Shown here in pieces: positions 5,450-60,221 of a stretch of DNA of 64,000 nt. The first letter of the stretch is position 1. Each line of letters starts with the position of its first letter. The notes beneath the pieces are model-generated. The model saw only the letters and a program-made list of their open reading frames with translations, ran no database searches and was not told where the DNA came from. This stretch comes from Candidatus Latescibacterota bacterium (GTDB lineage Bacteria > Latescibacterota > UBA2968 > GCA-2709665). A program made the translations under genes and the position numbers. The stretch is taken from NCBI GenBank assembly GCA_965219995.1, contig CBDCOX010000002.1, forward strand, positions 3,232,001-3,296,000, written 5' to 3'.

Positions 5450-5987
5450 GCCAAGTCCCTCCATTCTGGCGATAATCTGCGAATTGGAAACGAAAAGAGT
5501 TCGGGCGTTTCGGAGACCTTTCAGAAACGAACATCAATGACCCGGTCACGCGGGCTTTTGCGCCAACCGGCAATTCAACCGTGGATTCGTACCCCGCGTT
5601 GATCGGGATGCTGGTCCAGGAGCCCAGTGAGATCCCTTCCTGCGTCGCCCTCACGCTATAATAACCGCTTACGCCGCTTCCTGCAATCTCCACGCGCGCG
5701 CGCCCGCGCGCGCCGGTCTTACCCGACCACGCATAGTCTGCCGCCCGCCCGGAGACGGATCGAGCGAAATGGACGGTGACGCCGCTCAGCGGCGCCTGAC
5801 CCTGCCGGACGCGAACGATGACCGAGGCCGGGGTCGTGTTGGCGTCTAAAGCGAGTTTTCCCGGCGCGCGGCGAACCCCGACCCCGCCTTCCGGAACCTG
5901 CGAGGTTGTCAAGCGTTCGCGGCCGCAGCCCAACACCAGGAATCCGGCCAACGCCAAAACGGACACACGGCGCAAGCTCTTGAGCAT
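5442..5987 (-). CDS. Lipoprotein consisting only of the RSxSGR domain (stand-alone or truncated paralog)
   Basis: ATG 5987 with AAGGAG RBS; lipobox VLGC; FARSVSGRAADYAWSGKTG...GYYSVRA...GSWTSIPINAGY followed by a short unrelated tail. Confidence 0.7.
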   Translation of the reverse strand: MLKSLRRVSVLALAGFLVLGCGRERLTTSQVPEGGVGVRRAPGKLALDANTTPASVIVRVRQGQAPLSGVTVHFARSVSGRAADYAWSGKTGARGRARVEIAGSGVSGYYSVRATQEGISLGSWTSIPINAGYESTVELPVGAKARVTGSLMFVSERSPKRPNSFRFQFADYRQNGGTWHV

Positions 5988-6050
5988 TTCAGCGCTCCTT
6001 ATCGCAGAACCTGAGAGTCCCGACTCCGGTTGTACCGTTGGGCACAGACC

Positions 6051-6088
6051 CCAAAATGACAGGCAGCGTACACTGCCTGTCATTTTGG
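6051..6088. repeat. 38-bp near-perfect palindrome
   Basis: CCAAAATGACAGGCAG-cgtaca-CTGCCTGTCATTTTGG, perfect 16-bp arms. Confidence 0.85.
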
Positions 6089-6328
6089 CGAAACATTCAC
6101 CAGGTTAACCTTGATTCGTCATTTTCCGGTGACGTTACATCGTATATACGCAAGTCAACAACGGCGATTCGACGTCGGATTTTCTGGAACCTTCAGGTCA
6201 CTGGAGGTGAACGGAAAAAACGTCCGTTTCGACGACCTCTTCGGCCCAATTCGGAAGATCTTGCCGCGGTGCAGCGTTGCTTTTTTTTCTCGAATTCCGG
6301 AATCTACTCCCGAGCGCCGCGGAGCGCA

Positions 6329-7945
6329 TCACGGTCCGAACCGATAGACCACGGGCAACTGCGCCGGGTCTACGATGCTCGTGTCCGTGTGGTGATAGAT
6401 GTTCACGACACCGGTGCCGCAGTCTCCGAACTCGTCACAGGTGAGTTCCCCGATGAGACCGGGGAAGCCGGCTGTGGCCCCGATTTCCGCGCGCAGCGCA
6501 ACGCGGTCAATGTACAATTTCCCGCCATCGGTCACCGCAACGGCGTTGATGGCGCCCAGCAGCAGCGTCGCCGCGTCGTACGCGTGCGCCCAGAAGGGAT
6601 TGGTATGGGTCCCGCCGTAGATTGACTCGATCTCCGCAAGAACCGCACTTCCGCTCTTGCCGGTGGCGATATTGACGTTTTCGCCGTGAACCGGCTCCGG
6701 CCCGGCAAAATAGACGCCCTCGGACTGCGGCGTGCCGAGGAACTCCGAAAGGAGGAGGGCCGCGTCCGTGAGGAGCGTCGCGTCTTTCAGACCGTCGACC
6801 TCCCGAACCTGCACGGCGAATGGCGAGCCCTCTGCGATGAAGAGAGGAAAGAAGATGCCGTCGGGTTCGGCATCCGAAAATTCCGCAAGGACGGACGTCA
6901 TGTCCGTCTGTTCTTTCTCGATCCGGGCATTGACCGGGACCTCGCCGCCCAATTCACGGAACGCATTGCCGAACGCAGTGGTGAGACCCATGGTATACGG
7001 GTCGCCGTCGTCGATGGATACCATCCGCCGAAGGCCCAGTTCGTTGTATGCGAAGTCGGCGACGGCCTGCCCCTGGTACAGGTCGTTGTTGGCCGTGCGA
7101 AAATAGCCCGGGTGATAGTCCGGACTGGCGTTGCCGAAGAGGTCGGACGTGAGCGTCGGCGACGTGTTGGCCGGCGAGACCATCACCAGGCCCGCCGCAC
7201 TCAGCAGAGGTGAAGCCGCCACCGCGGATCCGGAACACAACGTGCCGATGATGCCGAGCGCCTGTGGATTGGCGATGACCTGCTGTGCGCTGGCGCGGCC
7301 GCCTTCGGCCGAACACATGCCGTCTATGGGATCGCCAAGCTCAACCTCGCGACCGTGGATCGGGCCGAAATCCCGAATGGCCAACTCGGCGCTGTATCGC
7401 GCCCAATCCGAAACCGAAGGCACGATGACGTGCGCAAGCACGGTACGGATTTGCACAGCCTCGCCCTCGCCATACGGTACCACGTCCCGAACGCTTGAAC
7501 CCGTCACGAGCGCCCCGCCGTCAACGGACAGTTCGACCTGCGTTTCATATCCTTCGTTAACCGGAATGCTCGACCACGAACCCAGAACGTTGTCGTCCTG
7601 CGTCGCCCGCGCCTGGTAGTATCCCCCCACCCGGGCGCCGCCGATAACAACCCTTGCCCGGCCGCGGGCATCGGTTGTGCCCGACCACTCAAAGTTCGCG
7701 GAACGGCCCGATACCGAACGCGAGAACGCCACGGTGACGCCTTCGACGGCCGTCTCGCCATCTTGCACGCGGGCCAGAACCGCGGCCTGCTCGACGTCTC
7801 CGCCGGGAGCCAGCTTTCCGAGCGCCTGCCCCGGCTGATCCTCTGCCTCAGGCATCTGTGACGTCGTCACGCGCTCACCACCGCAGCCCCACGCCAGAAC
7901 TGCGACAAGCGCCGGCAAAAACAAACTGCCGTTTCGTGAGAACAT
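6329..7945 (-). CDS. Lipoprotein: RSxSGR domain plus LivJ-like substrate-binding domain (close paralog of 3839-5449)
   Basis: Lipobox AWGC; long near-identical stretches with 3839-5449 (ADFAYNELGLRRMV, QLPVVYRF). Confidence 0.87.
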   Translation of the reverse strand: MFSRNGSLFLPALVAVLAWGCGGERVTTSQMPEAEDQPGQALGKLAPGGDVEQAAVLARVQDGETAVEGVTVAFSRSVSGRSANFEWSGTTDARGRARVVIGGARVGGYYQARATQDDNVLGSWSSIPVNEGYETQVELSVDGGALVTGSSVRDVVPYGEGEAVQIRTVLAHVIVPSVSDWARYSAELAIRDFGPIHGREVELGDPIDGMCSAEGGRASAQQVIANPQALGIIGTLCSGSAVAASPLLSAAGLVMVSPANTSPTLTSDLFGNASPDYHPGYFRTANNDLYQGQAVADFAYNELGLRRMVSIDDGDPYTMGLTTAFGNAFRELGGEVPVNARIEKEQTDMTSVLAEFSDAEPDGIFFPLFIAEGSPFAVQVREVDGLKDATLLTDAALLLSEFLGTPQSEGVYFAGPEPVHGENVNIATGKSGSAVLAEIESIYGGTHTNPFWAHAYDAATLLLGAINAVAVTDGGKLYIDRVALRAEIGATAGFPGLIGELTCDEFGDCGTGVVNIYHHTDTSIVDPAQLPVVYRFGP

Positions 7946-8040
7946 AACGAGTCACCTCCAATTTTTCAGACGTCGAAAAACGGAATCCATACCCGAAAGC
8001 GGCGACTATGGACGCCGGAACCTGCCGGCGATTTTAACGT

Positions 8041-8076
8041 AAAACAGCCTCCGGACACATTGGCATCCGGAGGCTG
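8041..8076 (-). terminator. Probable intrinsic terminator or stabilising hairpin
   Basis: 11-bp stem CAGCCTCCGGA/TCCGGAGGCTG followed by TTTT on the minus strand, just after the stop at 8092. Confidence 0.55.
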
Positions 8077-8091
8077 GAGACGTGTACTTGA

Positions 8092-9609
8092 TTACTCGAA
8101 CGGCTCGAATGCGCCGTCCCGGACGATCAGCACGATGGGATCGTAGACCGCGTCGCCGTCGTCGTTGAACGAGAAGGTGCCCAGAATCGTGTCGACGTCC
8201 CGGGTAGCAGCCATTGCATCCTTTATTGCGCTCGCGTTCGTCGATCCGGCGTTTGCGATCGCATCCGCGAGTATGTTCAGCGAGGCGTACGAAAGCGCGG
8301 CCCACGGACCCGGTTCACTGTCGTGTTCCGCCATATAACTATCAATGAAGGTCTGATTCCCAGGCGTGGAAGCATTGGTTGCCCAACTCGTAATGCTGAT
8401 CACGCGTTCCGCGGCCTCTCCGGCGGCGGCGACTTCAGTCAACGTCATTTCCGGGATAATGATGGGAATATTCGAGGGTATGCCAACTTCACGGGCCTGG
8501 ACCATAATTTGAATCATTTCCGCTGCCAGACACGAAACGAAGAGTGCGTGCGGATTCAGATCTTTGATATTGTTCAACTGGTCCGCGAACGATGTATCTC
8601 CCGTCGCAAAGGTCTCCCGGCCCAGAATCTCAACCTCGCCTTCCACAAGGGAATTGCTTACGGCCTCGTCCAGGCTCCGGGAATAGACGTCGGCGTCGTC
8701 AACCATTGTGGCTACCCTGCTGAACCTCAGTTTCTCCTGCAATTCCTTGACGGCGCCGGGAACCAGCGTACCCACGTTGAGGCCGGAGCGGAAAATATAA
8801 TCGCCGATCGCGCTCAGGCCAACAGCGGTTGAGGTCGAACTGAATGCCAGGACTTCGTTCCGTTGGGCGATCGGGAACACTTCCTTTCCGACGGTGGAAA
8901 TGCCGGGGCCCAGGATGACGTTCACGCCGTCTTCGTTGATGAGTTTGTTGAACGCCGCGGTGGCAGCGTCGACCGTACCTTCCGTATCCTCGACGATAAA
9001 TTCGATACTTGCGCCGCCGAGCCTCGCAGAGTTGTTGATTTCTCCTTGAGCCAACTCAAAGCCTTCCAGCGCCGGCACGCCGTACACGTCCTGAGGACCC
9101 GTAAGCGGCACGGCGACACCAATGGCGATCTTTGCGGGCAGACCGCCTGGCGTCAGCGCGATCGAACCGGTCGCGCTCGCCTTGTCGCCGATTGGCAGTT
9201 CAACTGTCGACTGATACCCGCTGTTGATCGGTATGCTCAACCACGAACCGATCTCGCTTCCGCCACTCATGGCCCGCGCCGCATAGTAGCCCGTTACACC
9301 GGCGCCGCCGATATCCACGTACGCCTTGCCCCGCACGTTGGTCGTTCCGGACCATTTGAAATCGGCCGCCCGACCGGAAACCGAACGCGAGAACTCGACG
9401 GTAGCGCCGCTGACCGGCATGCCGCCGTCCTGCACGTTCGCTACGACCACGGCCCGCATCATTCCGTTCAGGGCCAGCTTGCCCAGGGGTTGGCCGGCGC
9501 CGTCCCCTGCCTCCGGTATCTGCGACGTTGTAAGGCGCTCGCCGCCACAACCCCATATCAGACCTGCGGAAAGCGCAAACAGCAACACACTGCGAACACT
9601 CCGAAACAT
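8092..9609 (-). CDS. Lipoprotein: RSxSGR domain plus PBP1 substrate-binding domain (paralog of 2194-3723)
   Basis: Lipobox IWGC; shares FPIAQRNEV.AFSSTSTA.GLSAIGDYIFR and GDAVYDP with 2194-3723. Confidence 0.87.
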   Translation of the reverse strand: MFRSVRSVLLFALSAGLIWGCGGERLTTSQIPEAGDGAGQPLGKLALNGMMRAVVVANVQDGGMPVSGATVEFSRSVSGRAADFKWSGTTNVRGKAYVDIGGAGVTGYYAARAMSGGSEIGSWLSIPINSGYQSTVELPIGDKASATGSIALTPGGLPAKIAIGVAVPLTGPQDVYGVPALEGFELAQGEINNSARLGGASIEFIVEDTEGTVDAATAAFNKLINEDGVNVILGPGISTVGKEVFPIAQRNEVLAFSSTSTAVGLSAIGDYIFRSGLNVGTLVPGAVKELQEKLRFSRVATMVDDADVYSRSLDEAVSNSLVEGEVEILGRETFATGDTSFADQLNNIKDLNPHALFVSCLAAEMIQIMVQAREVGIPSNIPIIIPEMTLTEVAAAGEAAERVISITSWATNASTPGNQTFIDSYMAEHDSEPGPWAALSYASLNILADAIANAGSTNASAIKDAMAATRDVDTILGTFSFNDDGDAVYDPIVLIVRDGAFEPFE

Positions 9610-48256: not shown

Positions 48257-48390
48257 TGAAATGGAGTCCGCGTCGTATATTTCGAATCGACAGACAACGG
48301 GTCGCCAACGTCCCGCCGACGCAAATTTCGCAAAAACGGCCTTTCAATCGGAGGATTTTCGGTATTTAGGTAATCCGACATTGCGATAGT

Positions 48391-48543
48391 AATTCCGGAT
48401 TCAGGTTACAAAACAGGGAAAACGGTGAAAATCCGTTGCGGTCCCGCCGCTGTAACTGGGGATGTTTCTCGCAACGACGCCACTGGTTAACTACCGGGAA
48501 GGCGCGGGAAACAGGTGATCCAGGAGCCAGAAGACCTGCCTGA
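48391..48543 (+). ncRNA. Cobalamin (AdoCbl) riboswitch
   Basis: AGGT..AGGGAA..CGGTGAAAATCCG..GTCCCGCCGCTGTAA..GCCACTG..CGGGAAGGC..B12 box AGCCAGAAGACCTGCC, upstream of B12 uptake/salvage genes. Confidence 0.93.
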
Positions 48544-48623
48544 GTCTCAGACCATATGTTTTTCCTCGTGGATTTGGGAAACGGTGACACAAACGCGTGC
48601 TTCGGCCGCGTGGTTGGTTATGA

Positions 48624-48658
48624 CCCTGATTTCCGCCAGGAAATCGGGGATTTTTTTT
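48624..48658 (+). terminator. Intrinsic terminator, probable riboswitch expression platform
   Basis: CCCTGATTTCC-gcca-GGAAATCGGGG followed by A and T8. Confidence 0.7.
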
Positions 48659-48844
48659 AAGGCGGGGAGAGGTGAGACGGGAGAGGTGAGAGGAAAACCC
48701 TGCTCCACCGGATCACCGAATAAAGCGAGATGTGAATCGTACAAGGGGCAGGTTACGGTTTGCGCCATGTAATTGGCTACGAATGACCTGAAGTCTCTCC
48801 TGGAGCTATTGAGGGTCGAATGCGGATCGTTGGAGGCTGATTTA

Positions 48845-49969
48845 ATGTTGGATTTCAGATTCTGGACACGATTGCTCTGTTGCATCGGCATGTGCGGGAC
48901 GGCGGTACCCGTTAGCGCGGAAGTGTCATTGCGATACGCCGAGGGGTTTCGCGTTGACTATTTCGACGGGTACAAGGTCGCGACCGTCCTGGCGCCGGGG
49001 ACGGGCGCGAGGGATACGCTTCGGTACGTCCTGGTATCGCGCGACGGGAAATCGCCGGATGGTTATGCAGGGGCGCCGAGGATACGGATTCCCGTGAGGT
49101 CGCTGATCACCACGTCCACAACGCACCTGCCGCATATCGAAAAACTGGACGAGATTCAATGCCTCGTTGCGGTGGACAACGTCAAATTCGTCAACTCGAA
49201 GGCCGTCAGACAGCGGTTCGCGGCAGGGAAAATAGAGGAAGTCGGCAGGGGAAGGTCGATCGATTTGGAGCGGGTTCTCGTACTCCAGCCCGAACTCGTC
49301 ATCATCGACGCGCCGTCGCAGGACAACGCATTCCATTCGCTTCAGCAGGCGGGCGTGGCCGCCGTGGTGAATGCCGCCTATGCCGAACCGACGCTGCTCG
49401 GGCGCGTGGAGTGGCTCAAATTCATGGGCGCCTTTTTCAACAAGGAAGCAATGGCCGCCGCGCAATTCGACAGTATCGCGGCCAGGTACGAGGTGCTCAG
49501 ATCGTTGACCGGGAATGTGCCGCGCCAAGAGAAGCCGACCGTTTTCGTGGGATCCCTGTGGCGCGGGACGTGGTTTATGTCCGGCGGCAAGTCCTATCCC
49601 TCGCAACTGCTCGAGGACGCCGGCGCGAATTACCTGTGGGGAGACAATGAATCGCGACGGAGTTTGTCGCTGGACTTCGAAGCGGTTTACGAAATAGCGC
49701 ACAATGGCGATTTCTGGATCACCATGAGGAACGAATGGCTATCCATAGACAACGTCGTCGCGGAAGATGAACGATACGGGCAATTCAAGGCGGTCAGAAC
49801 GGGGAACGTCTTCAACGCCAACGCGAGGCTCAACGCAAATGGCGGCAACGATTATTGGGAAACCGGCCTGATCGAGCCGGACGTTCTTCTGGCCGACATC
49901 ATTAAGATCCTGCATCCCGACCTGCTGCACGATCACCAGCTCAAATATTATCGAAAGCTGGATCCATAG
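48845..49969 (+). CDS. Cobalamin/iron-chelate ABC substrate-binding protein (BtuF-like)
   Basis: Signal peptide; YAEGF, IPVR....STTH, EPTLLGRVEWLKF, DAGANY, NDYWE.G...PD..LAD. Confidence 0.85.
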   Translation: MLDFRFWTRLLCCIGMCGTAVPVSAEVSLRYAEGFRVDYFDGYKVATVLAPGTGARDTLRYVLVSRDGKSPDGYAGAPRIRIPVRSLITTSTTHLPHIEKLDEIQCLVAVDNVKFVNSKAVRQRFAAGKIEEVGRGRSIDLERVLVLQPELVIIDAPSQDNAFHSLQQAGVAAVVNAAYAEPTLLGRVEWLKFMGAFFNKEAMAAAQFDSIAARYEVLRSLTGNVPRQEKPTVFVGSLWRGTWFMSGGKSYPSQLLEDAGANYLWGDNESRRSLSLDFEAVYEIAHNGDFWITMRNEWLSIDNVVAEDERYGQFKAVRTGNVFNANARLNANGGNDYWETGLIEPDVLLADIIKILHPDLLHDHQLKYYRKLDP

Positions 49970-49972
49970 CCT

Positions 49973-52168
49973 ATGCGAATCATGCGATCCCTGATATTCC
50001 TGACTCTCTGTGCAAGTACGCCGCTTCAGGCAGCGGAGATTACGGGCCGCGTCATCGATGCGGACACCCAAATGCCCGTCGCCGATGCGCGCGTTCGCGT
50101 TCTCAACGCCGACCTCGCGGCGGTGACGGATGACCGCGGTCATTTTTTCATTCGCGACCTCGCGGCCGGCATCCATACGCTCGCCATCACGCACATCGCG
50201 TATCGGTCCGGGCAACGCAGGGTCCACGTGAGTGACGAGATTTACGTTGCCATCGAGCTGACGCCGCGGGCGTTTCCCCTCGATGAGTTCCCCGTGATTG
50301 CCGATCCGACGGGACCCGGCGACATCCACAGAAGTCCGGCCTATGCCACCGTGATCACGCGCGAGAGCTTCGAGGGAAGAGAGACGACCCTTCCGGACGT
50401 CCTGGCCGAGGCCACGGGCGTACACGTCAAGCGCCTGGGCGGGCTGGGCGCATTCAGCACGATTTCCCTACGGGGTTCGTCCGCCGATCAGGTCGAAGTG
50501 TATCTCGACGGCGTTCTTTTAAATGCCGCCTTCGGCGGGGGCGTGGACCTCGGCAACCTGCCGCTCGCGCACGTCGGGCAGATCGAAGTGTATCGAGGCG
50601 CGGGCGCCCGGGGCAACGGCCTGGGCGGGGCGGTGCACGTACGCACGCGTCCCACGCAGGCACCGTGGCGCCATGACGTTCGCGGTTCGTGGGGGGCTTT
50701 CGACACACGGTTGATGAGCGGCATGATCGCGGGCGGGCTCGGGCGGTCGGAGTTTCTTGCCGTGGCCGACTATGCGCAAAGCGACAACGATTTCGGATTT
50801 CTGGACGACAATGGAACCGAATACAATGCCGATGACGACGTCTGGTCCAGGCGCCGGAACAACCACCACCGGTCCCTCAATCTGCTGGGGAAATGGCGAC
50901 GCGCGCTCGGGGAAAACAGCGAAGTGTCCCTCCACGAGACGATGTACTGGAAGGACCAGGGCATGCCGGGCATCAGTAACAATCAATCGCGGAATGCACA
51001 GTTGGATGCCTTCCGGACGATGACGGAGATCACATACGAGAATCGGGCGCTGGCGGGTGCCATGAGTACGCGCCAGTCGTTTTACGTCACACACACCAGG
51101 GAGCGATTCCGCGATCCCGACGGCGAAGTTGGGATTGGAAGGCAGGATAACGAATATCGCACGCGCACGTATGGATGGCGGGGCCGCATCAGAACCGTTC
51201 TGCTGTCCCGATGCGATGTCTCGGCGGCGACCGGCGTCCGCAGAGAGTCCTACTTCCCGACTACGCGCATCCGCAACATCGCGAATTTCTTCGACAGCCG
51301 GCGATGGGTCGTATCCGCACGTTCGGGCGCAGACGTTACCCTGCCGGGGATATCCGGCGTCTGGTCTCTTAATGCCGAACACCGGCTCATCCACAGTTCG
51401 TTTACGGGAGCCAATCCATTCGATTTTTCGCCGCTTGCGCCCGATTCGGCGAATACCCGCAATCTAACGAGCGTTCGTACGGGCGTTCGACTGGATCTGA
51501 CGTCCCGCCTTGCGTTCAAGGCCAATGCAGGGCGCGTATTCCGGATTCCCTCGTTCTTCGAGCTCTTCGGCGACCGCGGCGGCGTGGTAGGCAACGTCAA
51601 TCTCCGGCCGGAATGCGGTTTTGCGTTGGACGGGGGCCTGCGCTGGTCCGGCGAGGCGAACTCGTTGGAGTTTGCGGTTTTCGATCACCGCTATGAAGAC
51701 CTGATCCAGTTTGTCCACACGTCGCAAGCCACGTCTCGCCCCGTAAACATCGGCAGCGCCCGGGTGTACGGGATCGAAATCTCCGCGCAAAGACGCCTCG
51801 GTCGCTACGTCAACGTCTCCGGAAATTACACGTATCAGGATGCCAGAAACCGATCGGAAATCCCCTACCTGTCCGGCAACGTACTGCCCAATCGACCGCC
51901 CCACGCGCTGTTCGTCCGTGCGACGGCGCAACTGGGACGCTTTACCGCCGCGTATGACTACAGCCTGGAGGACGGCAGCTTTCTCGATCAGTCGAACCGG
52001 CGCCCCCTTTCGTCACGGCACATTCACAACGCCGGCGTGAAACTGAATACCGGACGGCGGTTCCAAATCGGAATGGAGGCAAAGAATATCGCCGGCGCCC
52101 AAGTTGCCGATACATGGGGCTATCCGTTACCCGGGCGCGCGTTTTTCGTGAGCGTGAATACGGAATAG
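49973..52168 (+). CDS. TonB-dependent receptor (BtuB-like) with N-terminal carboxypeptidase-regulatory-like domain
   Basis: GRVIDA.T..PV.DA; plug ISLRGS..QVEVYLDGV, IEVYRG; FR.PSF.EL, GN.NLRPE; YPLPGR. Confidence 0.88.
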   Translation: MRIMRSLIFLTLCASTPLQAAEITGRVIDADTQMPVADARVRVLNADLAAVTDDRGHFFIRDLAAGIHTLAITHIAYRSGQRRVHVSDEIYVAIELTPRAFPLDEFPVIADPTGPGDIHRSPAYATVITRESFEGRETTLPDVLAEATGVHVKRLGGLGAFSTISLRGSSADQVEVYLDGVLLNAAFGGGVDLGNLPLAHVGQIEVYRGAGARGNGLGGAVHVRTRPTQAPWRHDVRGSWGAFDTRLMSGMIAGGLGRSEFLAVADYAQSDNDFGFLDDNGTEYNADDDVWSRRRNNHHRSLNLLGKWRRALGENSEVSLHETMYWKDQGMPGISNNQSRNAQLDAFRTMTEITYENRALAGAMSTRQSFYVTHTRERFRDPDGEVGIGRQDNEYRTRTYGWRGRIRTVLLSRCDVSAATGVRRESYFPTTRIRNIANFFDSRRWVVSARSGADVTLPGISGVWSLNAEHRLIHSSFTGANPFDFSPLAPDSANTRNLTSVRTGVRLDLTSRLAFKANAGRVFRIPSFFELFGDRGGVVGNVNLRPECGFALDGGLRWSGEANSLEFAVFDHRYEDLIQFVHTSQATSRPVNIGSARVYGIEISAQRRLGRYVNVSGNYTYQDARNRSEIPYLSGNVLPNRPPHALFVRATAQLGRFTAAYDYSLEDGSFLDQSNRRPLSSRHIHNAGVKLNTGRRFQIGMEAKNIAGAQVADTWGYPLPGRAFFVSVNTE

Positions 52169-52301: not shown

Positions 52302-53543
52302 ATGAGGTGGTTTCTGCTGGTTCTGTTCCTTGCAACCGATGTACTGGCGAATCAGGCGGTGATGACGACGACGGATTACGCCACGGGTGGACTTTCGAGC
52401 CTGGACCTCGACACAAATACGGCTGTAAACGACCATCTGACGATTCATTCAGACGCGGTGGTTCGCACGTATCGAGACAAGGTGTATGTACTCAACCGCC
52501 TTGGGCAGGATAACGTCATTGTTCTGAGCGGGGATGATTTACAGACGCCACTGACGCAGTATTCCACGGGAAACGGCACGAATCCCCACGACATCGCGTT
52601 TGTCAGCGAGGAGAAGGCGTATATTTCGCGATATGGCCGAACCCATCTCCTCGTCGTCAATCCCGTCACGGGCGATTCGCTGGGTACGGTCGATCTTTCG
52701 ACGTTTGCGGATGCCGACGGCCTTCCCGAAACCTCTCAACTCGCCGTGCACGGCGCGCATCTGTTCGCGGCGTGTCATCGTCTTGACAGGGAGAACGGAT
52801 GGGTCCCGACCGAATTTTCGGCGATTGCCGTCGTGGACGTGACATCCGACCAACTCGTGGACGTGGACCCGGACGCTGAGGGCATGCAGGGGATTGTCAT
52901 GACCGGCAGCAATCCCTCAGGGGCGGTGCTGCGGGGCAGCAGGTGGTATTTGAGCGCCGTCAATACGTACACCGATTTGACCGACGGCGGCATCGAGGTG
53001 ATCGATCTGGCGAACTTGCGAAGCGAAGGAATCGTGCTCGATGGGACGACCGTGGGCGGCAATCCGGGTTCGCTGGTGATGACTTCCGAGAGTGACGGGT
53101 ATGCCGTCATTACCGACGAGAATTTCGTGAATTCCGTCAAACGCCTGGATCTGGCGACGCAGTCGGTGTCCCCGGGCCTGGAGGGGCTCTCTGGCGGATT
53201 TGTGCCCAGTCTGGGCCTGTTCGGCACGCGGCTGTTTGTTCTGGATCAGGGGAGTTTCGGCGATCCGGCCTCCGCCGGCGTGAAGGTCTACGACGTGAAT
53301 TCGAACGACCTTCTGGCCGGTCCGATCAGCATGGGCCTGCCGCCGTCGAGCATTGCGTTCCTGGGCAGTGTGGCGGATTTCAATGGCGATTGTATTGTGG
53401 ATTTCAGCGATTTCGTGGCATTCGCCTCCACGTTTGGCGGAACCGTCTCTGACGATGATTTCGATCCCAGATTCGATCTGAGTGGAAACGGAGAGGTCGA
53501 TTTCCAGGATTTCCTGATCTTCGCTTCCGAATTCGGGCGATGA
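52302..53543 (+). CDS. Secreted YncE/BtuG-like beta-propeller with C-terminal dockerin/EF-hand-like pair
   Basis: Signal peptide; VYVLNR, NPHDIAFVSEEKAYI, GGIEVID; tail ADFNGDCIVDFSDFVAFA...DLSGNGEVDFQDFLIFA. Confidence 0.7.
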   Translation: MRWFLLVLFLATDVLANQAVMTTTDYATGGLSSLDLDTNTAVNDHLTIHSDAVVRTYRDKVYVLNRLGQDNVIVLSGDDLQTPLTQYSTGNGTNPHDIAFVSEEKAYISRYGRTHLLVVNPVTGDSLGTVDLSTFADADGLPETSQLAVHGAHLFAACHRLDRENGWVPTEFSAIAVVDVTSDQLVDVDPDAEGMQGIVMTGSNPSGAVLRGSRWYLSAVNTYTDLTDGGIEVIDLANLRSEGIVLDGTTVGGNPGSLVMTSESDGYAVITDENFVNSVKRLDLATQSVSPGLEGLSGGFVPSLGLFGTRLFVLDQGSFGDPASAGVKVYDVNSNDLLAGPISMGLPPSSIAFLGSVADFNGDCIVDFSDFVAFASTFGGTVSDDDFDPRFDLSGNGEVDFQDFLIFASEFGR

Positions 53544-53669: not shown

Positions 53670-54794
53670 ATGGATGAATATCTGGATCGCCACGAACACT
53701 ACGATCTGACGCGCGACGGCCGTTTTCTGATCGCCGAGCTGCGGTCGCCCCACCAGGTGCTGAGTACGTCGGCGCATCGCGGCGGCTTGTACACGGGCAT
53801 CCGCTTTCTGGTGAATCACCAGAGTTGCGAGGGAACCGGGCACGATGCGCGATTCGCGTTGATGAGGAAACTCGGCCAGGCGGGCTATCACCGCCGCGTC
53901 TGCGCGGAACGCGGCCTGCCCCCCGATGGGGTCGCGATGATGGGTACGGCCGCGAACATGAACTGCGCGGCGCATGTCGTGAAAACCCATGCCGAATTGC
54001 GCGTGTGCGCGGTTGTGACGGCGGGCGTGGAGGGCAACGCGGGTTGTGCGGGCGATCCGGCAACCTGGCATGAAGAGGATGAAAAATGGATCGAAACGCA
54101 TCCGAACGCGGGTACGATCAACACCATGCTACTCATCAATTGGCCGCTCACGCCGGGCGCGATGGCGCGGGCGGCGATCACGATGACCGAGGGCAAGTCC
54201 GCCGCGCTGCGCGACCTCGCTGTGTCGAGTCGGTATTCTCGCGACCTCGCCACGGGCACCGGCACCGATCAGTACTGTATTGCCGCGCCATTGGACGAAA
54301 CGAGAACGTCGAAGACCAACACGGGCCACCACTCGAAATTGGGGGAATTGATCGGCACGGCGGTACGCGAAGCCACACGCGAGGCGCTGCGATGGCAGAA
54401 CGGTCTCGAGCCGTCCCAGACGAGAAGCCTCTTCCATGCGCTGATGCGGTACGGGTTCCGCCGCGACCGGTTCCTGGCGGCGATGCATAAGCGTCTGACG
54501 GAAGCCGATTGCGCCCTGCTGGAAAAAAACCTCAAGTCCGTTGTATACGAACCGCGGGTGTCGGCGGCGGCATACGCGTTCGCGGCGATTTGGGACCGTG
54601 TGCGATGCGGCGCGATTCCTTATTCGCTGGCCGAACCGGTATTCCGGCAGCAGGCCGCGACATTGGCGTCCTCGCTCGCAGCGAGACCGGGGGAGTGGCC
54701 GGCCTGTCACGAACAGCTCCGCGCCAGCGACGACAATCCCCTGGAACTCGTCTTCGATGCCCTTGCGCTGGGTTGGCGTCTGAAATGGACCTGA
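53670..54794 (+). CDS. cbiZ: Adenosylcobinamide amidohydrolase
   Basis: VLSTS...GG, MGTAANM, VTAGVEGNA, GTINT, TEGKSAAL..L, ATGTGTD, GHHSKLGELIG. Confidence 0.88.
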   Translation: MDEYLDRHEHYDLTRDGRFLIAELRSPHQVLSTSAHRGGLYTGIRFLVNHQSCEGTGHDARFALMRKLGQAGYHRRVCAERGLPPDGVAMMGTAANMNCAAHVVKTHAELRVCAVVTAGVEGNAGCAGDPATWHEEDEKWIETHPNAGTINTMLLINWPLTPGAMARAAITMTEGKSAALRDLAVSSRYSRDLATGTGTDQYCIAAPLDETRTSKTNTGHHSKLGELIGTAVREATREALRWQNGLEPSQTRSLFHALMRYGFRRDRFLAAMHKRLTEADCALLEKNLKSVVYEPRVSAAAYAFAAIWDRVRCGAIPYSLAEPVFRQQAATLASSLAARPGEWPACHEQLRASDDNPLELVFDALALGWRLKWT

Positions 54795-55765
54795 CCCTGC
54801 TTGCGCCGGACCCGGTTCTGCTCATCGGCGCCGTTCTCCTGGACGGCGTGTTCGGCGACCCGGTCTATGCCTGTCACCCCGTTCGCCTGATAGGCGGCAC
54901 GCTTTCCGTTTTCGAACGGAACCTGCGTCGGCTTGGTCTGGACGGATACGCCGGAGGTTGTACTCTGGCGTTGCTGCTCTCCACGTTCTGGCTGGTCATC
55001 ATCTGCGGCCTGGCAATCGTGCTGAGTCAGGTTCATCCCGCGGTCGGCTGGGTTTTTCAGTTATATATTATATATAGTATGATTGCGCTCAAGGACCTGT
55101 GCAAGCACGGGTTGGCCATCGATCGCGCCGGCGATCCGGACGGCGCCCGGAGGGCTGTCTCACAACTCGTTGGGCGCGATACCGATACAATGGACGCCGC
55201 GGCCTGCCGCAGGGCGGGCGTGGAGAGCCTGAGCGAGAACGCCGTCGACGGGTTTATTTCGCCCGTTTTCTGGTATATTATATTTGGTATTCCTGGAGTT
55301 GTATTCTTCAAGGTGATCAGCACCATGGATTCCATGGTGGGTTTCAAAACCCCGCGATACCGCGCTTTCGGATGGTGCGGCGCCCGGCTGGACGACGTGC
55401 TCAATTACCTGCCGGCGAGATTGACTTATCTCTGGATGGTGCTGGTCGCGCTGTTCCTGCCCGGTTGTTCCGCACGCAAGGCGATGCTTGTCGGCTGGCG
55501 GCAGCACGGGCTCGTTCCGGGACCCAATGCCGGATGGAGCGAAGCGACGGCTGCGGGTGCGTTGCAGCGCCGGCTGGTCGGCCCCGTCCGGCAGGACGGA
55601 ACACTGATTACAGAGCTGTGGCTGGGTGTTGAATCCGATCCGGAAGGCGGCCAACCCGGGGACATGCGCCGCGCGTGCTCATTTGTTATCGGCACCTGTG
55701 TGCTCGCAACGGGTCTCGGGGGCGCTTATCTTTTTGTTCTACGCCCGCACGTATTGACTTTCTGA
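54785..55765 (+). CDS. cbiB: Adenosylcobinamide-phosphate synthase (CbiB/CobD)
   Basis: LD..FGDP....HPV, LVGRDT, ESLSEN.VDG..SP, TMDSMVG, ARLDD..NYLPARL, PNAGW.EA..AGAL. Confidence 0.92.
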   Translation: MDLTLLAPDPVLLIGAVLLDGVFGDPVYACHPVRLIGGTLSVFERNLRRLGLDGYAGGCTLALLLSTFWLVIICGLAIVLSQVHPAVGWVFQLYIIYSMIALKDLCKHGLAIDRAGDPDGARRAVSQLVGRDTDTMDAAACRRAGVESLSENAVDGFISPVFWYIIFGIPGVVFFKVISTMDSMVGFKTPRYRAFGWCGARLDDVLNYLPARLTYLWMVLVALFLPGCSARKAMLVGWRQHGLVPGPNAGWSEATAAGALQRRLVGPVRQDGTLITELWLGVESDPEGGQPGDMRRACSFVIGTCVLATGLGGAYLFVLRPHVLTF

Positions 55766-55782
55766 TGTCCCGCCGCTATCTT
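55754..55782 (+). promoter_or_regulatory. Putative sigma70 promoter for the Cache-domain gene
   Basis: TTGACT-17 nt-TATCTT overlapping the cbiB 3' end. Confidence 0.45.
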
Positions 55783-55831: not shown

Positions 55832-57421
55832 ATGATGAAATCTCTAACTGCCGGCTTGACTCTGGCGGCGATCTGCATGTCTTTAAATCCTGTCTTTGCA
55901 CAGGACAACAGGACGACGGCAGGCGATGTGGTGGACCGTGAGACCCTGATGGCCTTTGTGGAAGGGGCAAAGGACTCCCTGGAGGGAGCAGCCGACTTCG
56001 CCGCGGTCGGGCGATTGACCGAGGCGTTCAGGACCGAAGGCGACTGGAAGGCCGGGCCGGTCTATCTCGTGATTCTGACCGGCGAGGGACTCGTGCAATT
56101 TCACGCGGCCGACGTTATGATCGAAGACACGAACGTAATTGATCTCGAGGATGACAGAGGCGCGAAAATTGTGCGGGACATGCTCGCCGCTGCCGCTGAG
56201 GACGGCGGCTTTGTCGAGTACTATTGGGACGATCCTACCGTGGAGGACGATGATTTACCCAGGCTGACCTTCTCGGTTCCTGTTACCATAGTCGGGCTGG
56301 AATTCGTCCTTGTCGGCGGTTTTCACATGGACCTGTCGGACGTCGATGCCGAGCCGAACATCTTTGAACTGCTGGAGGTAACGGCCCGGGACGTCAAGGA
56401 CAGGGCATCCCTCATGTCGTTTGTGGAGGGCCTGCGGGTGCTCGTTCCCTTCATCGAAGAAAGAGGGTATCCCTACCTGGCAACCGTGCAGGCCGCCATC
56501 CGGACCGAGGGCGAGGATTTCAAACACGGTTCGATGTACATCTTTGTGATCAACACGTCGGGCATACTGATCTTTCACGGCACGGCGGACGCCAGTTCCT
56601 TCGGCGAGAACATGATCGACGTGGAGGACGTCAACGGAGTCAAAATCGTCCGTGAAATTATCGCGACGGCCGAAGCCGGCGGCGGGTTCGTGAAATATTA
56701 CTGGGACAATCCGGCGGTCATCGGAGACGAGGACACCAGGTCGCCCAAGCTCAGTTACGTGATCCCGATTCACATTTTCGGTCAGACGTTTGTCGTGGGC
56801 GCGGGCATCTATCTGGAGAGCGATATCGCATTCGAAGAGGTCGCGCAGGTGGATGTACAGGTCGTCGGCGACGGCGACCCGAGCGGACTGACGGTGCAAG
56901 TTTCGCGGTCGATTTCAGGACGCGCGCCCGTCTATGCGTGGCGCAAGACGACCGATGAGACGGGGCGCGCCGTGGTGAGAGTCACGCCGGACGAACAGCG
57001 TCGCGTCAACGGCATGTACCGGGCGCGCGTGCGCACGTCCGAGGGCGCGACCGTCGCAAGCTGGAGCAGCATTCCGCTGATGCCGGGAAGGCGCGTGACC
57101 TATGAGGTCAATCTGAATGGCGATGTACGTGCCATTGCGTCGCTTGCGGCTTCGCTGGGGCCGAACCGTCCGAATCCGTTCAACCCCGCAACAACCATAC
57201 GCTATTCACTGAACGAATCGGCGGACGTGAAACTGGCAGTCTACAACCTGCTGGGCCAGGAAATCCGTTCGCTGGTTCAGCAGTTCCAGCCGGCGGGCAG
57301 CTACACGGTCGTGTGGGACGGACGGGACGCCGCCGGACGGCAGGTGAGTACGGGTTTGTACCTGTATCGGCTTCAGGCAGGGGCGGACGTTGTCACGCGC
57401 AAGATGGTGTTGGCGAAATAG
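55832..57421 (+). CDS. Secreted protein: two Cache-like repeats, RSxSGR domain and FlgD-Ig-like C-terminal domain
   Basis: Signal peptide (VFA-Q); duplicated TA.DV.DR..LM.FVEG...YL/I...G...FH...GGFV.YYWD.P; VSRSISGR...WSSIP; PNRPNPFNP.TTIRY.L...WDGRD..G..V.TG.Y.YRL. Confidence 0.8.
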   Translation: MMKSLTAGLTLAAICMSLNPVFAQDNRTTAGDVVDRETLMAFVEGAKDSLEGAADFAAVGRLTEAFRTEGDWKAGPVYLVILTGEGLVQFHAADVMIEDTNVIDLEDDRGAKIVRDMLAAAAEDGGFVEYYWDDPTVEDDDLPRLTFSVPVTIVGLEFVLVGGFHMDLSDVDAEPNIFELLEVTARDVKDRASLMSFVEGLRVLVPFIEERGYPYLATVQAAIRTEGEDFKHGSMYIFVINTSGILIFHGTADASSFGENMIDVEDVNGVKIVREIIATAEAGGGFVKYYWDNPAVIGDEDTRSPKLSYVIPIHIFGQTFVVGAGIYLESDIAFEEVAQVDVQVVGDGDPSGLTVQVSRSISGRAPVYAWRKTTDETGRAVVRVTPDEQRRVNGMYRARVRTSEGATVASWSSIPLMPGRRVTYEVNLNGDVRAIASLAASLGPNRPNPFNPATTIRYSLNESADVKLAVYNLLGQEIRSLVQQFQPAGSYTVVWDGRDAAGRQVSTGLYLYRLQAGADVVTRKMVLAK

Positions 57422-57446
57422 CGGCCGCGTGCGAATTTGCGGTTCA

Positions 57447-57475
57447 TTGACTTTCCGAATTCAGTCCGTTATTCT
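57447..57475 (+). promoter_or_regulatory. Putative sigma70 promoter for hicBA
   Basis: TTGACT-17 nt-TATTCT. Confidence 0.45.
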
Positions 57476-57562: not shown

Positions 57563-57832
57563 ATGAAGACGTATCTATTCAAGGCAGTCCTTGAGAAAGA
57601 CAAATGGCCCGATGAGCCGGATTCAAAGGCCGTGTGGCGAGCGTATATTCCTGCGCTGGAGCATAGGGGGGCCGCAAGCTGGGGAGATACTCAGAAAGAG
57701 GCTTTGGAGAATTTAAGGAACGCTGTCGATCTTCTCGTTGCGTACCTGCTGGAGAATGGAGAAGAGATACCCTCCGAGCCATCTTCGCAGATTGAGGTCA
57801 GCGATGTGCCCATGGTCACCGTAGCTATCTGA
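57563..57832 (+). CDS. hicB: HicB family antitoxin
   Basis: GAGGAG RBS; W.AYIPAL...GAASWGDTQKEALENL..AV.L....L.E.GE.IP. Confidence 0.82.
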   Translation: MKTYLFKAVLEKDKWPDEPDSKAVWRAYIPALEHRGAASWGDTQKEALENLRNAVDLLVAYLLENGEEIPSEPSSQIEVSDVPMVTVAI

Positions 57833-57833
57833 T

Positions 57834-58085
57834 ATGGCTATCGATTATAGCAGACTTCGTTCGCTGACAGCACGAAGATTGATACGAGCACTAAATAGAG
57901 ACGGGTTTCGCGAATACAGAAGGAAAGGCGCGACCCGTTTTTTTGTGCACGTGGATGGGAGAGTGACAACCGTCCACCTGCACAACTTGAATCAGATTTT
58001 TGCAGTGGGTACGCTCAAGTCAATCGTCGAGCGTCAAGCTCAGTGGGGAGAGGATGACCTTGAGCGCCTTGGGCTGTTGAAGTGA
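57834..58085 (+). CDS. hicA: HicA family toxin
   Basis: LTARRLIRALNRDGF...R.KG....F.H.DGR..TV..H.....F..GTLKSI. Confidence 0.78.
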   Translation: MAIDYSRLRSLTARRLIRALNRDGFREYRRKGATRFFVHVDGRVTTVHLHNLNQIFAVGTLKSIVERQAQWGEDDLERLGLLK

Positions 58086-58110: not shown

Positions 58111-59157
58111 GTGACTGAGGCGATTCTGACTGCCCGTACGCTGTCCATCGGATACACAGGCGGCCGCCGGCCGGCTCGCGTTGTGGCGCGGGATATCGAC
58201 GTTTCGCTCGATTCCGGAGACTTTGTCTGTCTCCTGGGGCCCAATGGCGCGGGGAAATCCACGCTTTTGCGGACGCTTGCCGGGGTGCAGCCGCCGCTTG
58301 ACGGCCACGTCCGTATCGCAGGAAGAGACACCTCGGAGATGTCCGCGACCGAAGTCGCTCAACTCCTCAGTGTGGTCCTAACGGACCGCGTCAGCGCGGG
58401 CGCCATGACGGTGCGCGACCTGGTGGGCCTGGGTCGGCATCCGCATACGGATTGGATCGGACGTTTCGCTCCTGAAGATGAACAGGCCGTTTCATGGTCG
58501 ATCCGGGCGGCGCGGGCTGAAGACCTTGAACACCGCAATGTCGCCGAACTGAGCGATGGCGAGCGCCAGCGGGTGATGATTGCGCGGGCGCTGGCGCAGC
58601 AGCCCGACCTGATGATTCTGGACGAACCCACCGCCTTTCTCGATCTGCCCCGCCGCGTGGAAATCATGGCGCTGTTGCGAGACCTTGCACATACGACCCG
58701 GAAGGCGATTCTCCTCTCCACGCACGACCTGGACCTGGCGCTGCGCTGTGCGGACCGCATCTATCTCCTGCCGTCAGAAGGCGAACTGCGGACCGGTGCG
58801 CCCGAGGACCTGGTCCTGAACGGCGCTTTTGAAGCGGCATTCGGGAGCGACGGCGTGCGCTTCGACGCCGACACGGGCGCCTTCAGGCTCACGCCGGAGC
58901 GAGGCCAGGCCGCGGTTTCCGTGTCGGGACAGGGACGGCGGGCGTATTGGACAAAGCGCGCGCTGGAACGCGCAGGGTTCCAGGCGGATGACGCGGAATC
59001 CCCGTGCCGCATCAACGTCGTCGACGGCACCAACGGCTCGTGGCGATTCGAACGTGGCGAAACAACCCGAAATTTCCATTCCATTTACGACTTGATTGCA
59101 GCGCTTAAAGTAGAATTTGGAATAGATACGGTGGCAAGATCGGGAATTGCAGGATGA
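58111..59157 (+). CDS. Cobalamin/iron-chelate ABC ATP-binding protein (BtuD/FepC-like)
   Basis: GPNGAGKSTLLR, LSDGERQRVMIARALAQ, LDEPTAFLD, STHDL. Confidence 0.9.
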   Translation: MTEAILTARTLSIGYTGGRRPARVVARDIDVSLDSGDFVCLLGPNGAGKSTLLRTLAGVQPPLDGHVRIAGRDTSEMSATEVAQLLSVVLTDRVSAGAMTVRDLVGLGRHPHTDWIGRFAPEDEQAVSWSIRAARAEDLEHRNVAELSDGERQRVMIARALAQQPDLMILDEPTAFLDLPRRVEIMALLRDLAHTTRKAILLSTHDLDLALRCADRIYLLPSEGELRTGAPEDLVLNGAFEAAFGSDGVRFDADTGAFRLTPERGQAAVSVSGQGRRAYWTKRALERAGFQADDAESPCRINVVDGTNGSWRFERGETTRNFHSIYDLIAALKVEFGIDTVARSGIAG

Positions 59158-60221
59158 GATCTGATCTGAAAAGTGAAGCGCGGGAGGGACCGCGGTGCTC
59201 GATGATCGTTCCAGGACTGTTTCTGCTGCTTCTTGTTGCGTTCGGCCTGAGCCTTTCGCTCGGGTCGGTCCGCATTCCTCTGGCCGGACTGTTCGTTATA
59301 CTGATGGGCGGAGAGCCCGCCTCTCCGGCATGGTCGATCATCATTCACACCATTCGCCTGCCGAAGGCGATTACCGGCGTGCTGGCCGGCGCCGCCCTGG
59401 CTGTGAGCGGACTGCAGATGCAGACGTTGTTTCGCAATCCACTCGCCGATCCGTTCGTGCTTGGCATCAGCGCGGGCGCCAGTCTGGGCGTGGCGATCGT
59501 GGTATTGACGGCGGGCGCCGTCGGCAGCGCGCTGATCGCCGGCCTGGGCTTCCTGGGCGACCTCGGCCTGGCTTTTGCGGCGATCCTCGGCGCCGCCGCG
59601 GTGCTGGGGGGTGTGCTGCTGGTTTCCCGCAGCGTGAGCAGCGTGATGACGCTGCTCATCCTTGGGTTGATGTTCGGATACGCAACCGCCGCGTTCGTCA
59701 GCATTCTGATTTACTTCAGCGTGCCCGAACAGATTCAGTCGTACATCCTTTGGACGTTCGGCAGTTTCGGCAGCGTGACGTGGCGCCAGGTCCCCGTGCT
59801 CGCCGGCGCCATTTTTCTTGGCCTCGTGCTCGCGTTGCTGTGTATCAAACCCCTGAACGCACTGCTGCTGGGCGAAGACTACGCCCGAAGCATGGGCCTG
59901 AACGTGAAACGCGCGCGGCTTTGGATCCTTGTCAACGCGTCGATTCTCGCGGGCGCCACCACCGCGTTCTGCGGCCCCATCGCCTTCCTGGGCCTGGCGG
60001 TGCCGCACCTGTGCCGAAGCCTGTTGCACTCGTCGGACCATCGCGTGCTCATGCCCGCCGTCATCTGCCTCGGCGCAACCCTCGCGCTGCTGTCCGATCT
60101 GTTCGCGCACCTGCCGGGCAGCCAGTACGTGCTGCCGCTCAACGCGGTGACCTCCCTCATCGGGGCGCCCGTCGTCATCTGGTTCATCCTGCACCGGAAG
60201 AACCTTAACCGGACGTTTTGA
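59154..60221 (+). CDS. FecCD/BtuC family ABC permease
   Basis: IRLPKA, MQTLFRNPLADP..LGIS.GASLG, LLLGE.YA.SMG, GPIAFLGLAVPHL.R. Confidence 0.92.
   Translation: MRSDLKSEAREGPRCSMIVPGLFLLLLVAFGLSLSLGSVRIPLAGLFVILMGGEPASPAWSIIIHTIRLPKAITGVLAGAALAVSGLQMQTLFRNPLADPFVLGISAGASLGVAIVVLTAGAVGSALIAGLGFLGDLGLAFAAILGAAAVLGGVLLVSRSVSSVMTLLILGLMFGYATAAFVSILIYFSVPEQIQSYILWTFGSFGSVTWRQVPVLAGAIFLGLVLALLCIKPLNALLLGEDYARSMGLNVKRARLWILVNASILAGATTAFCGPIAFLGLAVPHLCRSLLHSSDHRVLMPAVICLGATLALLSDLFAHLPGSQYVLPLNAVTSLIGAPVVIWFILHRKNLNRTF

Follow-up and report, generated by a model that had tools for sequence, protein, structure and literature searches.

A secreted tandem-Cache protein with a predicted type IX secretion tail in a cobalamin-riboswitch gene run of a Latescibacterota bacterium

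What is the role of a Cache protein that carries no signalling domain and appears to leave the cell? The question is raised by a gene at positions 55,832–57,421 of the window, the 64,000 bp stretch that was analysed (contig CBDCOX010000002.1, positions 3,232,001–3,296,000, assembly GCA_965219995.1 of a Candidatus Latescibacterota bacterium). No extracellular sensor module is commoner in prokaryotes than the Cache domain, which has been studied almost only as an input of receptors. The gene, called the target below, lies in a gene run headed by a cobalamin riboswitch. The original prediction, made from the DNA letters, had described a signal peptide, two Cache-like repeats, an RSISGR...SWSSIP segment and an FlgD-type tail, with neither a transmembrane helix nor a signalling domain, and all of these elements were confirmed. 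We propose that the target is, quite possibly, an accessory protein which, displayed on the cell surface, captures ligand for corrinoid salvage. The gene and its parts were the following.

55832..57421, + strand: target gene, 529 amino acids (aa), ATG start; secreted protein with tandem sCache_2 modules, a transthyretin-like domain and a C-terminal domain of the type IX secretion system (T9SS) (open reading frame (ORF), Pfam, NCBIfam, AlphaFold model).
55832..55900, + strand: Sec-type signal peptide, aa 1–23, ending in ...VFA ahead of QDN (inspection and hydropathy; predicted local distance difference test score, pLDDT, below 50 for aa 1–24).
55919..56326, + strand: sCache_2 module 1, aa ~30–165 (second Pfam stretch; PDB 2qhk, E 2.2e-6; VIA to PctC 5ltv, Z 9.8).
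56384..56830, + strand: sCache_2 module 2, aa ~185–333 (VIA to 2qhk, 4exo, 4k08 and 5g4y; alignments; conservation).
56843..57148, + strand: "RSxSGR" module, aa 338–439, a 7-strand transthyretin-like beta-sandwich (array-only hidden Markov model (HMM), alignment, VIA).
57170..57412, + strand: T9SS type-A C-terminal sorting domain, aa 447–527 (TIGR04183, FlgD_ig, VIA to the PorU C-terminal domain).

A Shine-Dalgarno-like stretch, AGGAGAGGG, preceded the ATG, and the N-terminus, MMKSLTAGLTLAAICMSLNPVFA followed by QDN, had the look of a Sec signal peptide. The two Cache repeats shared 39.9% identity across 153 aa (E 2e-33). Profile searches recovered the domains that had been named for the protein. 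The sCache_2 model (PF17200) scored 95.8 bits (cut-off 25), and dCache_2 105.4 bits, both in two stretches, the best dCache_2 stretch covering profile positions 90–185 of 298 only; FlgD_ig matched the tail (aa 454–516) with 48 bits. The T9SS type A sorting domain model of NCBIfam, TIGR04183, matched aa 447–526 with 41.5 bits (cut-off 23), and the Pfam model Por_Secre_tail, with 25.8 bits, stayed slightly below its cut-off of 27. The target thus combines an N-terminal Sec signal and a tail above the TIGR04183 cut-off, as expected of T9SS type-A cargo. No signalling or output domain was found with Pfam and NCBIfam. Beyond the signal peptide the sole other hydrophobic stretch was aa 145–165, which the model shows as a beta-strand within Cache module 1 and not as a transmembrane helix. 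The layout of Cache receptors, with a Cache domain flanked by transmembrane helices and a cytoplasmic output domain, was not that of the target.

The AlphaFold2 model, built on a 64-sequence alignment, had a mean pLDDT of 84.2 and a predicted template modelling score (pTM) of 0.52. Structures were compared by VIA-align on Foldseek candidates, and Foldseek and PDB sequence searches were concordant with the VIA assignments. Cache, transthyretin-like and PorU C-terminal-domain folds were all present in the model. Module 2 (aa 188–332) matched 2qhk with a Z of 17.0 and a root-mean-square deviation (rmsd) of 2.5 over 134 aa, followed by 4exo (Z 16.2), 4k08 (Z 15.9) and 5g4y (Z 15.2). These are sCache_2 chemoreceptor domains, to which the module aligned overall over ~132 aa with an rmsd of 2.4–3.0. 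Module 1 (aa 34–164) matched PctC (5ltv) with a Z of 9.8. Together with the Pfam score, the match to 2qhk showed that the repeats are true Cache folds. The model displayed a separate N-terminal pair of helices in each Cache module, with an uncertain inter-module geometry in keeping with the pTM of 0.52. Given this helix pair in each module, the modelled protein would be better called a tandem of two sCache_2 modules than a canonical dCache. Residues 338–439 matched transthyretin (Z 9.1–9.6, rmsd 3.4–3.7, ~97 of ~115 residues aligned), which suggests a seven-strand prealbumin-like sandwich, the moderate Z indicating likeness at the fold level only. Residues 436–529 matched the PorU C-terminal domain 6za2 with a Z of 10.9.

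The closest structures to the Cache modules were all chemoreceptor ligand-binding domains, and almost every Cache domain characterised so far is a sensory module. It can be imagined that the target is an indirect sensor whose ligand-loaded form docks on a membrane receptor or on a TonB receptor and signals ligand availability. A precedent is provided by solute-binding proteins, which act in this way on some chemoreceptors and kinases; that such proteins stimulate signalling proteins is stated in PMC8050422. This role appears improbable. The T9SS tail takes cargo past the outer membrane, away from inner-membrane receptors. Neither a kinase, a methyl-accepting chemotaxis protein (MCP), an anti-sigma factor nor a signalling extension of a TonB receptor was found in the annotated part of the window (43–64 kb), and the TonB-dependent receptor encoded upstream of the target has a CarboxypepD_reg and not an STN domain at its N-terminus. 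With the sCache_2 chemoreceptor domains (PscD 5g4y, Adeh_3718 4k08, the Vibrio parahaemolyticus MCP 2qhk/4exo, TlpB 3ub6–9) the target has in common the fold, the family and a Tyr/His/Tyr/Lys pocket. Unlike them it has two tandem modules in a soluble chain devoid of transmembrane helices and of an MCP or kinase output, and it is fused to a transthyretin-like domain and a T9SS tail, as an exported protein and not one anchored in the inner membrane.

The proposal of a role in corrinoid salvage comes from the surroundings of the gene.

48386..48557, + strand: cobalamin riboswitch aptamer (Rfam RF00174, 114.7 bits).
48624..48649, + strand: terminator-like hairpin after the aptamer, 11 pairs and a T-run (consensus scan only).
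48773..49969, + strand: BtuF-like substrate-binding protein (Peripla_BP_2, Pfam 75 bits).
49973..52168, + strand: TonB-dependent receptor (CarboxypepD_reg, Plug and barrel; the top NCBIfam match is a B12 receptor, below cut-off).
52302..53543, + strand: BtuG-like seven-bladed beta-propeller, 413 aa, with a dockerin/EF-hand-like C-terminus (model and VIA).
53670..54794, + strand: CbiZ adenosylcobinamide amidohydrolase (Pfam 193 bits).
54785..55765, + strand: CbiB (CobD_Cbib, Pfam 269.7 bits); the likely ATG at 54785 overlaps the cbiZ stop.
57563..58085, + strand: HicB-HicA toxin-antitoxin pair, between the target and btuD, variably present (Pfam).
58111..59157, + strand: BtuD-like ABC ATPase (Pfam).
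59154..60221, + strand: BtuC-like FecCD permease (Pfam).

From 48,773 to 60,221 every gene was on the + strand with short gaps, the gap between the cbiB stop and the target being 66 nt. The riboswitch was the single RF00174 match of the genome (150 of 489 candidates scored), and the hairpin behind it likely represents its expression platform. The gene following the TonB receptor gave a model with a pLDDT of 83.7 and a pTM of 0.82. Its top 11 VIA rows were all BtuG structures (3dsm, 8okv, 8bai, 8blw_B, 8bmz, 8bmy, 8ptf, 8ptd, 8bn0, 8bmx_D and 8p97_B; Z 29.5–31.1), with a modest margin over generic seven-bladed propellers, which came next at a Z of about 27–29. The BtuG codes agreed with the data-availability text of PMC10404256. 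A search of PDB sequences (E ~3e-3) agreed with VIA and with the gene position. Because a BtuG-like gene follows the TonB receptor, the locus is a Bacteroidota-style BtuB-BtuG gate. Such gates recruit accessory surface binders, as described in PMC13616437 and PMC10404256. The original prediction had placed the target in an extracellular ligand capture or sensing system; capture remains plausible, and the corrinoid operon under a cobalamin riboswitch had been missed.

The BtuG-like gene carried a Sec-type and not a lipoprotein signal in most relatives, and its dockerin/EF-hand-like C-terminal part measured ~55 aa. Docking of this tail onto the RSxSGR module by way of a dockerin was considered and rejected, as the tail was not among the 26 Dockerin_1 matches of the genome and NCBIfam dockerin_GC stayed below its cut-off. 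Of these 26 matches, mostly in large ORFs, 25 exceeded the cut-off, which suggests extensive dockerin-based surface assembly in this organism.

A search for relatives gave 219 homologs of the target at E ≤ 1e-3 among 8000 scored. The gene surroundings were compared at 41 related loci from species-representative genomes, titled Latescibacterota or Gemmatimonadota metagenome-assembled genomes (MAGs) or similar. At 17 of them, with 72–94% identity to the target, the BtuF, receptor, BtuG-like, (CbiZ), (CbiB), target, (HicBA), BtuD and BtuC genes were all in order, those in brackets being variably present. Among 53 genomes of the order, the riboswitch was present in 52 and orthologs of the target (at least 73% identity) in 20, 12 of them in genus g1 and eight in g11, a genus of another family. 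In 19 cases ortholog and riboswitch shared strand and contig, with the ortholog 6.1–10.0 kb downstream; in the 20th, they were on different contigs. No ortholog was found outside the operon in these 53 genomes. Between g1 and g11 the identity was 73–76% for the target, 74–77% for CbiZ, ~72% for the TonB receptor and ~74% for BtuD, so that the divergence of the target was about equal to that of its neighbours.

To these loci were added 20 riboswitch regions taken from 18 genomes lacking an ortholog. In g1 and g11 the core was constant (BtuF, receptor, BtuG-like, BtuD and BtuC), and the slot flanked by the BtuG-like and BtuD genes was variable: in the regions without an ortholog it was empty eight times and held HicBA alone once, CbiZ-CbiB twice and CbiZ-CbiB-HicBA twice. 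In other genera the riboswitch was followed by the receptor and a BtuG-like gene with 45–53% identity, an arrangement kept throughout the order. The 30 operons of g1 and g11 were distributed as follows: 15 contained the target with both CbiZ and CbiB, two contained it without an intact CbiZ-CbiB pair (one being locus L020), four had CbiZ and CbiB and no target, and nine had neither. These counts are descriptive, from genomes akin to one another and without a statistical test. The target is an optional accessory gene which mostly travels with CbiZ-CbiB.

What ligand would such a protein capture? PscD binds its carboxylate through Tyr90, His103, Tyr143 and Lys156, between Trp92 and Trp145 (PMC5062169). 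HMMER alignments to 5g4y, 4k08 and 2qhk placed Y236, H249, Y289 and K306 of module 2 at the positions of this tetrad, flanked by F238 and W291, and Y78, H91, Y130 and R144 of module 1. All 12 orthologs of the 64-sequence alignment kept the tetrad of module 2, as did at least 50 of the 52 other family members. The Lys position of module 1 was an Arg in eight of the 12 orthologs and a Lys in 47 of the 52 others. The retention of the tetrad across the family points to a carboxylate-bearing compound as the most likely ligand class for the whole family.

The same conservation bears on another alternative, according to which the target would be a structural or adhesive surface protein with Cache modules that no longer bind a ligand, the RSxSGR module and the T9SS domain forming a cassette that simply displays passengers. 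The passengers of this cassette are indeed very diverse, as will be seen below. Such a role is nevertheless highly improbable, the pocket being strictly conserved in all 12 orthologs and the modules being modelled at high confidence, which argues for a maintained binding site.

The third part of the protein had been likened to domains encoded near the left end of the window, where the predicted array proved to be real.

2194..9609, − strand: five lipoprotein-like genes with an N-terminal RSxSGR module, each with an xWGC/LGC signal and four with Peripla_BP_6.

An HMM was made from the five array domains alone and run over the whole set of 48,360 stop-to-stop ORFs from the 5.44-Mb genome. It found the RSISGR...SWSSIP segment of the target (aa 338–439) with an E-value of 7.6e-16 and 59.7 bits, which establishes the homology claimed in the original prediction. 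It also drew up the genome-wide list of architectures, with 20 carrier ORFs in total. The alignment of the 20 domains had nine invariant columns, with the motif R..G....T...G...G..W.S.P. In 11 carriers the module was found ~40 residues past a lipoprotein-like signal (xWGC/LGC) and was followed by Peripla_BP_6 (six cases), OpuAC, Cu/Zn superoxide dismutase (SOD), NigD_C or no recognisable domain. In the other nine it was located directly ahead of an FlgD_ig/T9SS tail; these were the target, a protein with choice-of-anchor-I and 5'-nucleotidase domains, four proteins with weak dCache_2 matches and three without a passenger-domain match. The target is thus exported by another route than the array proteins, with a T9SS C-terminal domain versus a lipoprotein-type signal, as had been predicted.

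No Pfam or NCBIfam model reached its cut-off on the RSxSGR module. Sub-threshold Pfam matches of its members were to Big_1, CarboxypepD_reg (E 0.0095 in one array member) and bMG3, with none in the target, and ESM Atlas matches were to CarboxypepD_reg-type clusters with scores of 0.80–0.84, which are leads only. The module resembles the transthyretin-like / CarboxypepD_reg clan in its seven-strand sandwich and its sub-threshold matches, and differs from it by remaining below all Pfam and NCBIfam cut-offs and by an invariant motif of its own. A library-wide profile search gave 752 cluster representatives (E ≤ 1e-3) out of 1.84 billion, which indicates a small family. Re-scanning 148 of the 150 listed matches placed the module at the N-terminus in 54, at the C-terminus in 32 and internally in six; 23 were short or stand-alone, nine were multi-repeat giants and the rest were unclassified. 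The partners in the N-terminal class (n = 54) were Peripla_BP_6 (10), SnoaL (7), Cache (5), Sod_Cu (2), Inhibitor_I42 (2) and Exo_endo_phos (2), with single cases of a di-haem peroxidase, cytochrome P460, an esterase and others. In the C-terminal and internal classes FlgD_ig was found in 30 of 38 and WD40/PD40 propellers in 7–9.

The idea of a mobile module repeatedly joined to small-molecule-binding domains thus held for the mobility and failed for the partners, which also include SOD, nucleotidase, SnoaL, peroxidase and propellers. The constant feature of the module, whatever its partner, was that it adjoined an anchoring element, either the lipoprotein Cys or the T9SS tail. A generic anchor-proximal stalk or tether would fit these observations better than a ligand-binding partner, and the conserved surface motif may leave room for a specific binding role. 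The module, for which Pfam and NCBIfam have no model, marks 20 exported proteins in this genome and offers a handle for cataloguing the surface proteome.

Several further features of the carriers were noted. Immediately past the lipid Cys the five array proteins had a conserved stretch in common, CGGER[LV]TTSQxPE...GKLA, which precedes the RSxSGR module and might be a lipoprotein surface-export signal of the lineage. One array member (5442–6083, 213 aa) consisted of the module alone. An ORF resembling a group II pyridoxal phosphate (PLP)-dependent decarboxylase, read by eye only, abutted the Peripla_BP_6 array (52–1470, − strand of the window). In one relative (L035:6186–14602) an RSxSGR-type Peripla_BP_6 gene, three Cache genes and a PLP-dependent decarboxylase occurred together. 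Elsewhere in the genome (G000:C2:4566533–4573984; loci L009, L014 and L008) three tandem paralogs of ~620–640 aa, with weak dCache_2, RSxSGR and a T9SS tail, were located directly downstream of a PorV-like outer-membrane protein match (42.8 bits, below cut-off).

We propose the following model. The target would be exported by Sec and its tail then recognised by the T9SS, with display on the outer surface, or release from it, as the outcome. The RSxSGR sandwich would serve as an anchor-proximal stalk, set beside a lipid anchor or a T9SS tail in this lineage. Outside the cell, the target would capture a carboxylate-bearing ligand pertinent to corrinoid salvage. This could be a small metabolite or an incomplete corrinoid, such as cobyric acid, in which a carboxylate is free on a side chain. 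The capture would raise the local ligand concentration for the BtuB/BtuG-like outer-membrane gate. A more specific version, in which the target is a T9SS-exported "corrinophore" of Cache fold for cobyric-acid-type corrinoids or a salvage-related metabolite, feeding the BtuB/BtuG gate alongside CbiZ-CbiB, and in which the RSxSGR module is a lineage-specific surface tether of lipoproteins and T9SS cargo, is doubtful. If true, the corrinophore would be the first Cache domain shown in nutrient capture instead of signalling.

The nearest known counterparts are the accessory lipoproteins of the Bacteroides Btu systems (BtuG, BtuH, BtuJ/DUF4465 and BtuK). According to PMC13616437 and PMC10404256, these too are encoded by variable extra genes of riboswitch-controlled btuB-btuG loci. 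Like them, the target is predicted to be outside the outer membrane and is proposed here to hand its ligand to the BtuB-BtuG gate, in line with what those papers describe. It differs in its Cache fold, theirs being a beta-propeller or a beta-jellyroll, and showed no homology to the BtuG propeller or DUF4465. It also differs in its export by a T9SS C-terminal domain instead of a lipoprotein signal, and in a pocket that looks suited to a carboxylate and not to a whole corrin, the binding of corrinoids being only proposed. On these grounds the target would be an accessory surface binder of the btu locus whose fold and export route are both new. With T9SS type-A cargo having an immunoglobulin (Ig)-like domain ahead of the C-terminal domain (PorU C-terminal domain 6za2), the layout of RgpB-type proteins, the target shares the ~80-aa C-terminal sandwich and another beta-sandwich before it. 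In the target this preceding sandwich is a strongly conserved transthyretin-like module which also occurs after lipoprotein signals in the genome, and the passenger is a Cache binding module, not an enzyme or an adhesin.

Literature searches outside the subscription journals found no paper on both sCache and T9SS, nor one on both "Cache domain" and "cobalamin riboswitch". In a further search none of the 15 papers listed, of 23, linked Cache to T9SS, and a search for stand-alone or secreted Cache proteins gave no relevant paper. The words Cache, T9SS and "type IX" were absent from a review of the Bacteroides cobamide relay (PMC13616437). A soluble tandem Cache protein with a secretion tail in a B12-riboswitch operon points to the reuse of Cache domains for capture outside the cell. 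With a BtuG-like propeller and another accessory fold, the multi-protein relay that handles cobamides outside the cells of gut Bacteroides would also exist in an uncultured phylum (MAGs labelled Latescibacterota/Gemmatimonadota). The soluble fragment of ~310 aa with its conserved pocket makes this hypothesis directly testable.

A number of observations weigh against a role of the target in corrinoid salvage, among them two sequence elements bordering the gene.

55753..55782, + strand: conserved motif resembling a promoter (TTGACT-17 nt-TATCTT), which overlaps the cbiB stop immediately ahead of the target (scan).
57446..57475, + strand: second copy of the motif, 25 nt past the target stop and ahead of hicB; part of a 27-nt direct repeat, 74% identical (55753–55779 and 57446–57472), both copies resembling a −35/−10 promoter.

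A 9-mer of the motif was present upstream of the target, with at most one mismatch, in all 17 orthologous loci, and the motif was invariant in a 13-sequence alignment. It was kept even in locus L020, where cbiB is reduced to its last ~52 codons. Because the motif persists where cbiB is mostly deleted, the target may possess its own sigma-70-like promoter and so not be under riboswitch control. No btu or cbi neighbours were present at the remaining 24 of the 41 related loci, which had at most 69% identity; the genes found there were Pec_lyase-like, AhpC/thioredoxin-like, PhyH, PLP-decarboxylase and Peripla_BP_6 genes, often with tandem Cache arrays, and the wider double-Cache family would thus not be linked to B12. 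Thirteen of the 30 operons of g1 and g11 had no target, including the four that keep CbiZ-CbiB, which indicates that the core system can do without it. Orthologs occurred in two genera only, and the kept synteny may partly reflect shared descent. The presence of HicBA in the same variable slot demonstrates that unrelated genes can lodge there.

The pocket raises a difficulty of its own, as its residues match those of sensors for C2/C3 carboxylates. Cobalamin lacks a free carboxylate and greatly exceeds in size the known ligands of sCache_2 pockets, and for these reasons direct binding of B12 in the canonical pocket is unlikely. Cobyric acid and similar incomplete corrinoids do have a free carboxylate, and cobyric acid is made by CbiZ and consumed by CbiB; the tie between such corrinoids and the Cache pocket is an inference and not a result. 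CbiC, CobS and CobU were not found in the genome, which is 98.6% complete, with searches that were positive in 6, 9 and 5 of 14 control genomes, respectively. The organism is probably auxotrophic for corrinoids, and its CbiZ-CbiB pair would operate without a detectable cobalamin synthase. The support for a T9SS in this genome was partial. SprA_N was found above its cut-off (105.7 bits) and 21 ORFs had TIGR04183 tails above cut-off, while the PorU-like frame of 1964 aa (217 bits against 420) and the PorV-like match (102 bits against 250) stayed below the curated cut-offs. The search of the genome for GldM gave no match, and the control search gave none in any genome.

Alternatively, the target could be a general extracellular binder of carboxylates (of the acetate, pyruvate, lactate or propionate type) with no role in corrinoid metabolism, lodged like HicBA in the variable slot and expressed from its own promoter. 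The tetrad conserved across the family whatever the genomic context, the paralogs in many contexts unrelated to B12, the conserved promoter-like motif, the absence of the target from 13 of 30 related operons and the occupation of the slot by HicBA would all be expected of such a protein. Against it stand the location of all 20 orthologs in this operon and of none elsewhere, the position kept across two genera of different families with a divergence equal to that of the neighbours, and the occurrence of the target in 15 of 19 operons with CbiZ-CbiB versus two of 11 without. We consider a general carboxylate binder somewhat unlikely. The accessory capture protein for corrinoid salvage is the reading that we retain, as a tentative one based on sequence and context.

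The distant double-Cache homologs were mostly proteins of ~330–375 aa with a signal peptide and no tail, often in tandem arrays of 2–5 genes. Others were forms of 546, 706–710 or ~910 aa with FlgD_ig tails. In other lineages Cache repeats were fused to an autotransporter beta-domain (L048:9929–13801 and L051:9569–11581, one from a MAG titled "bacterium" and one from Alphaproteobacteria). Since the homologs come without a tail, with an FlgD_ig tail or fused to an autotransporter, non-signalling exported Cache proteins appear to form a broader, little-discussed class with at least three routes of export or display. The L051 Cache-autotransporter gene was the divergent neighbour of a TonB-dependent receptor gene.

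The second copy of the promoter-like motif was present at the equivalent position in six of the 17 orthologous loci. Relatives without the target had one copy, at the end of cbiB. The variants of the repeat copies were mixed among the loci, and copy 2 travelled with HicBA. As a lead, the 27-nt repeats bracketing the target could be the mark of a gain or loss by cassette, or of a loss by recombination between them. Directly downstream of the btu operon, a McrBC-type restriction system was observed on the − strand (window positions 61143–63904; McrBC 266 bits, with an AAA_5 ATPase), and the GC content fell to 0.48–0.54 across 60–64 kb.

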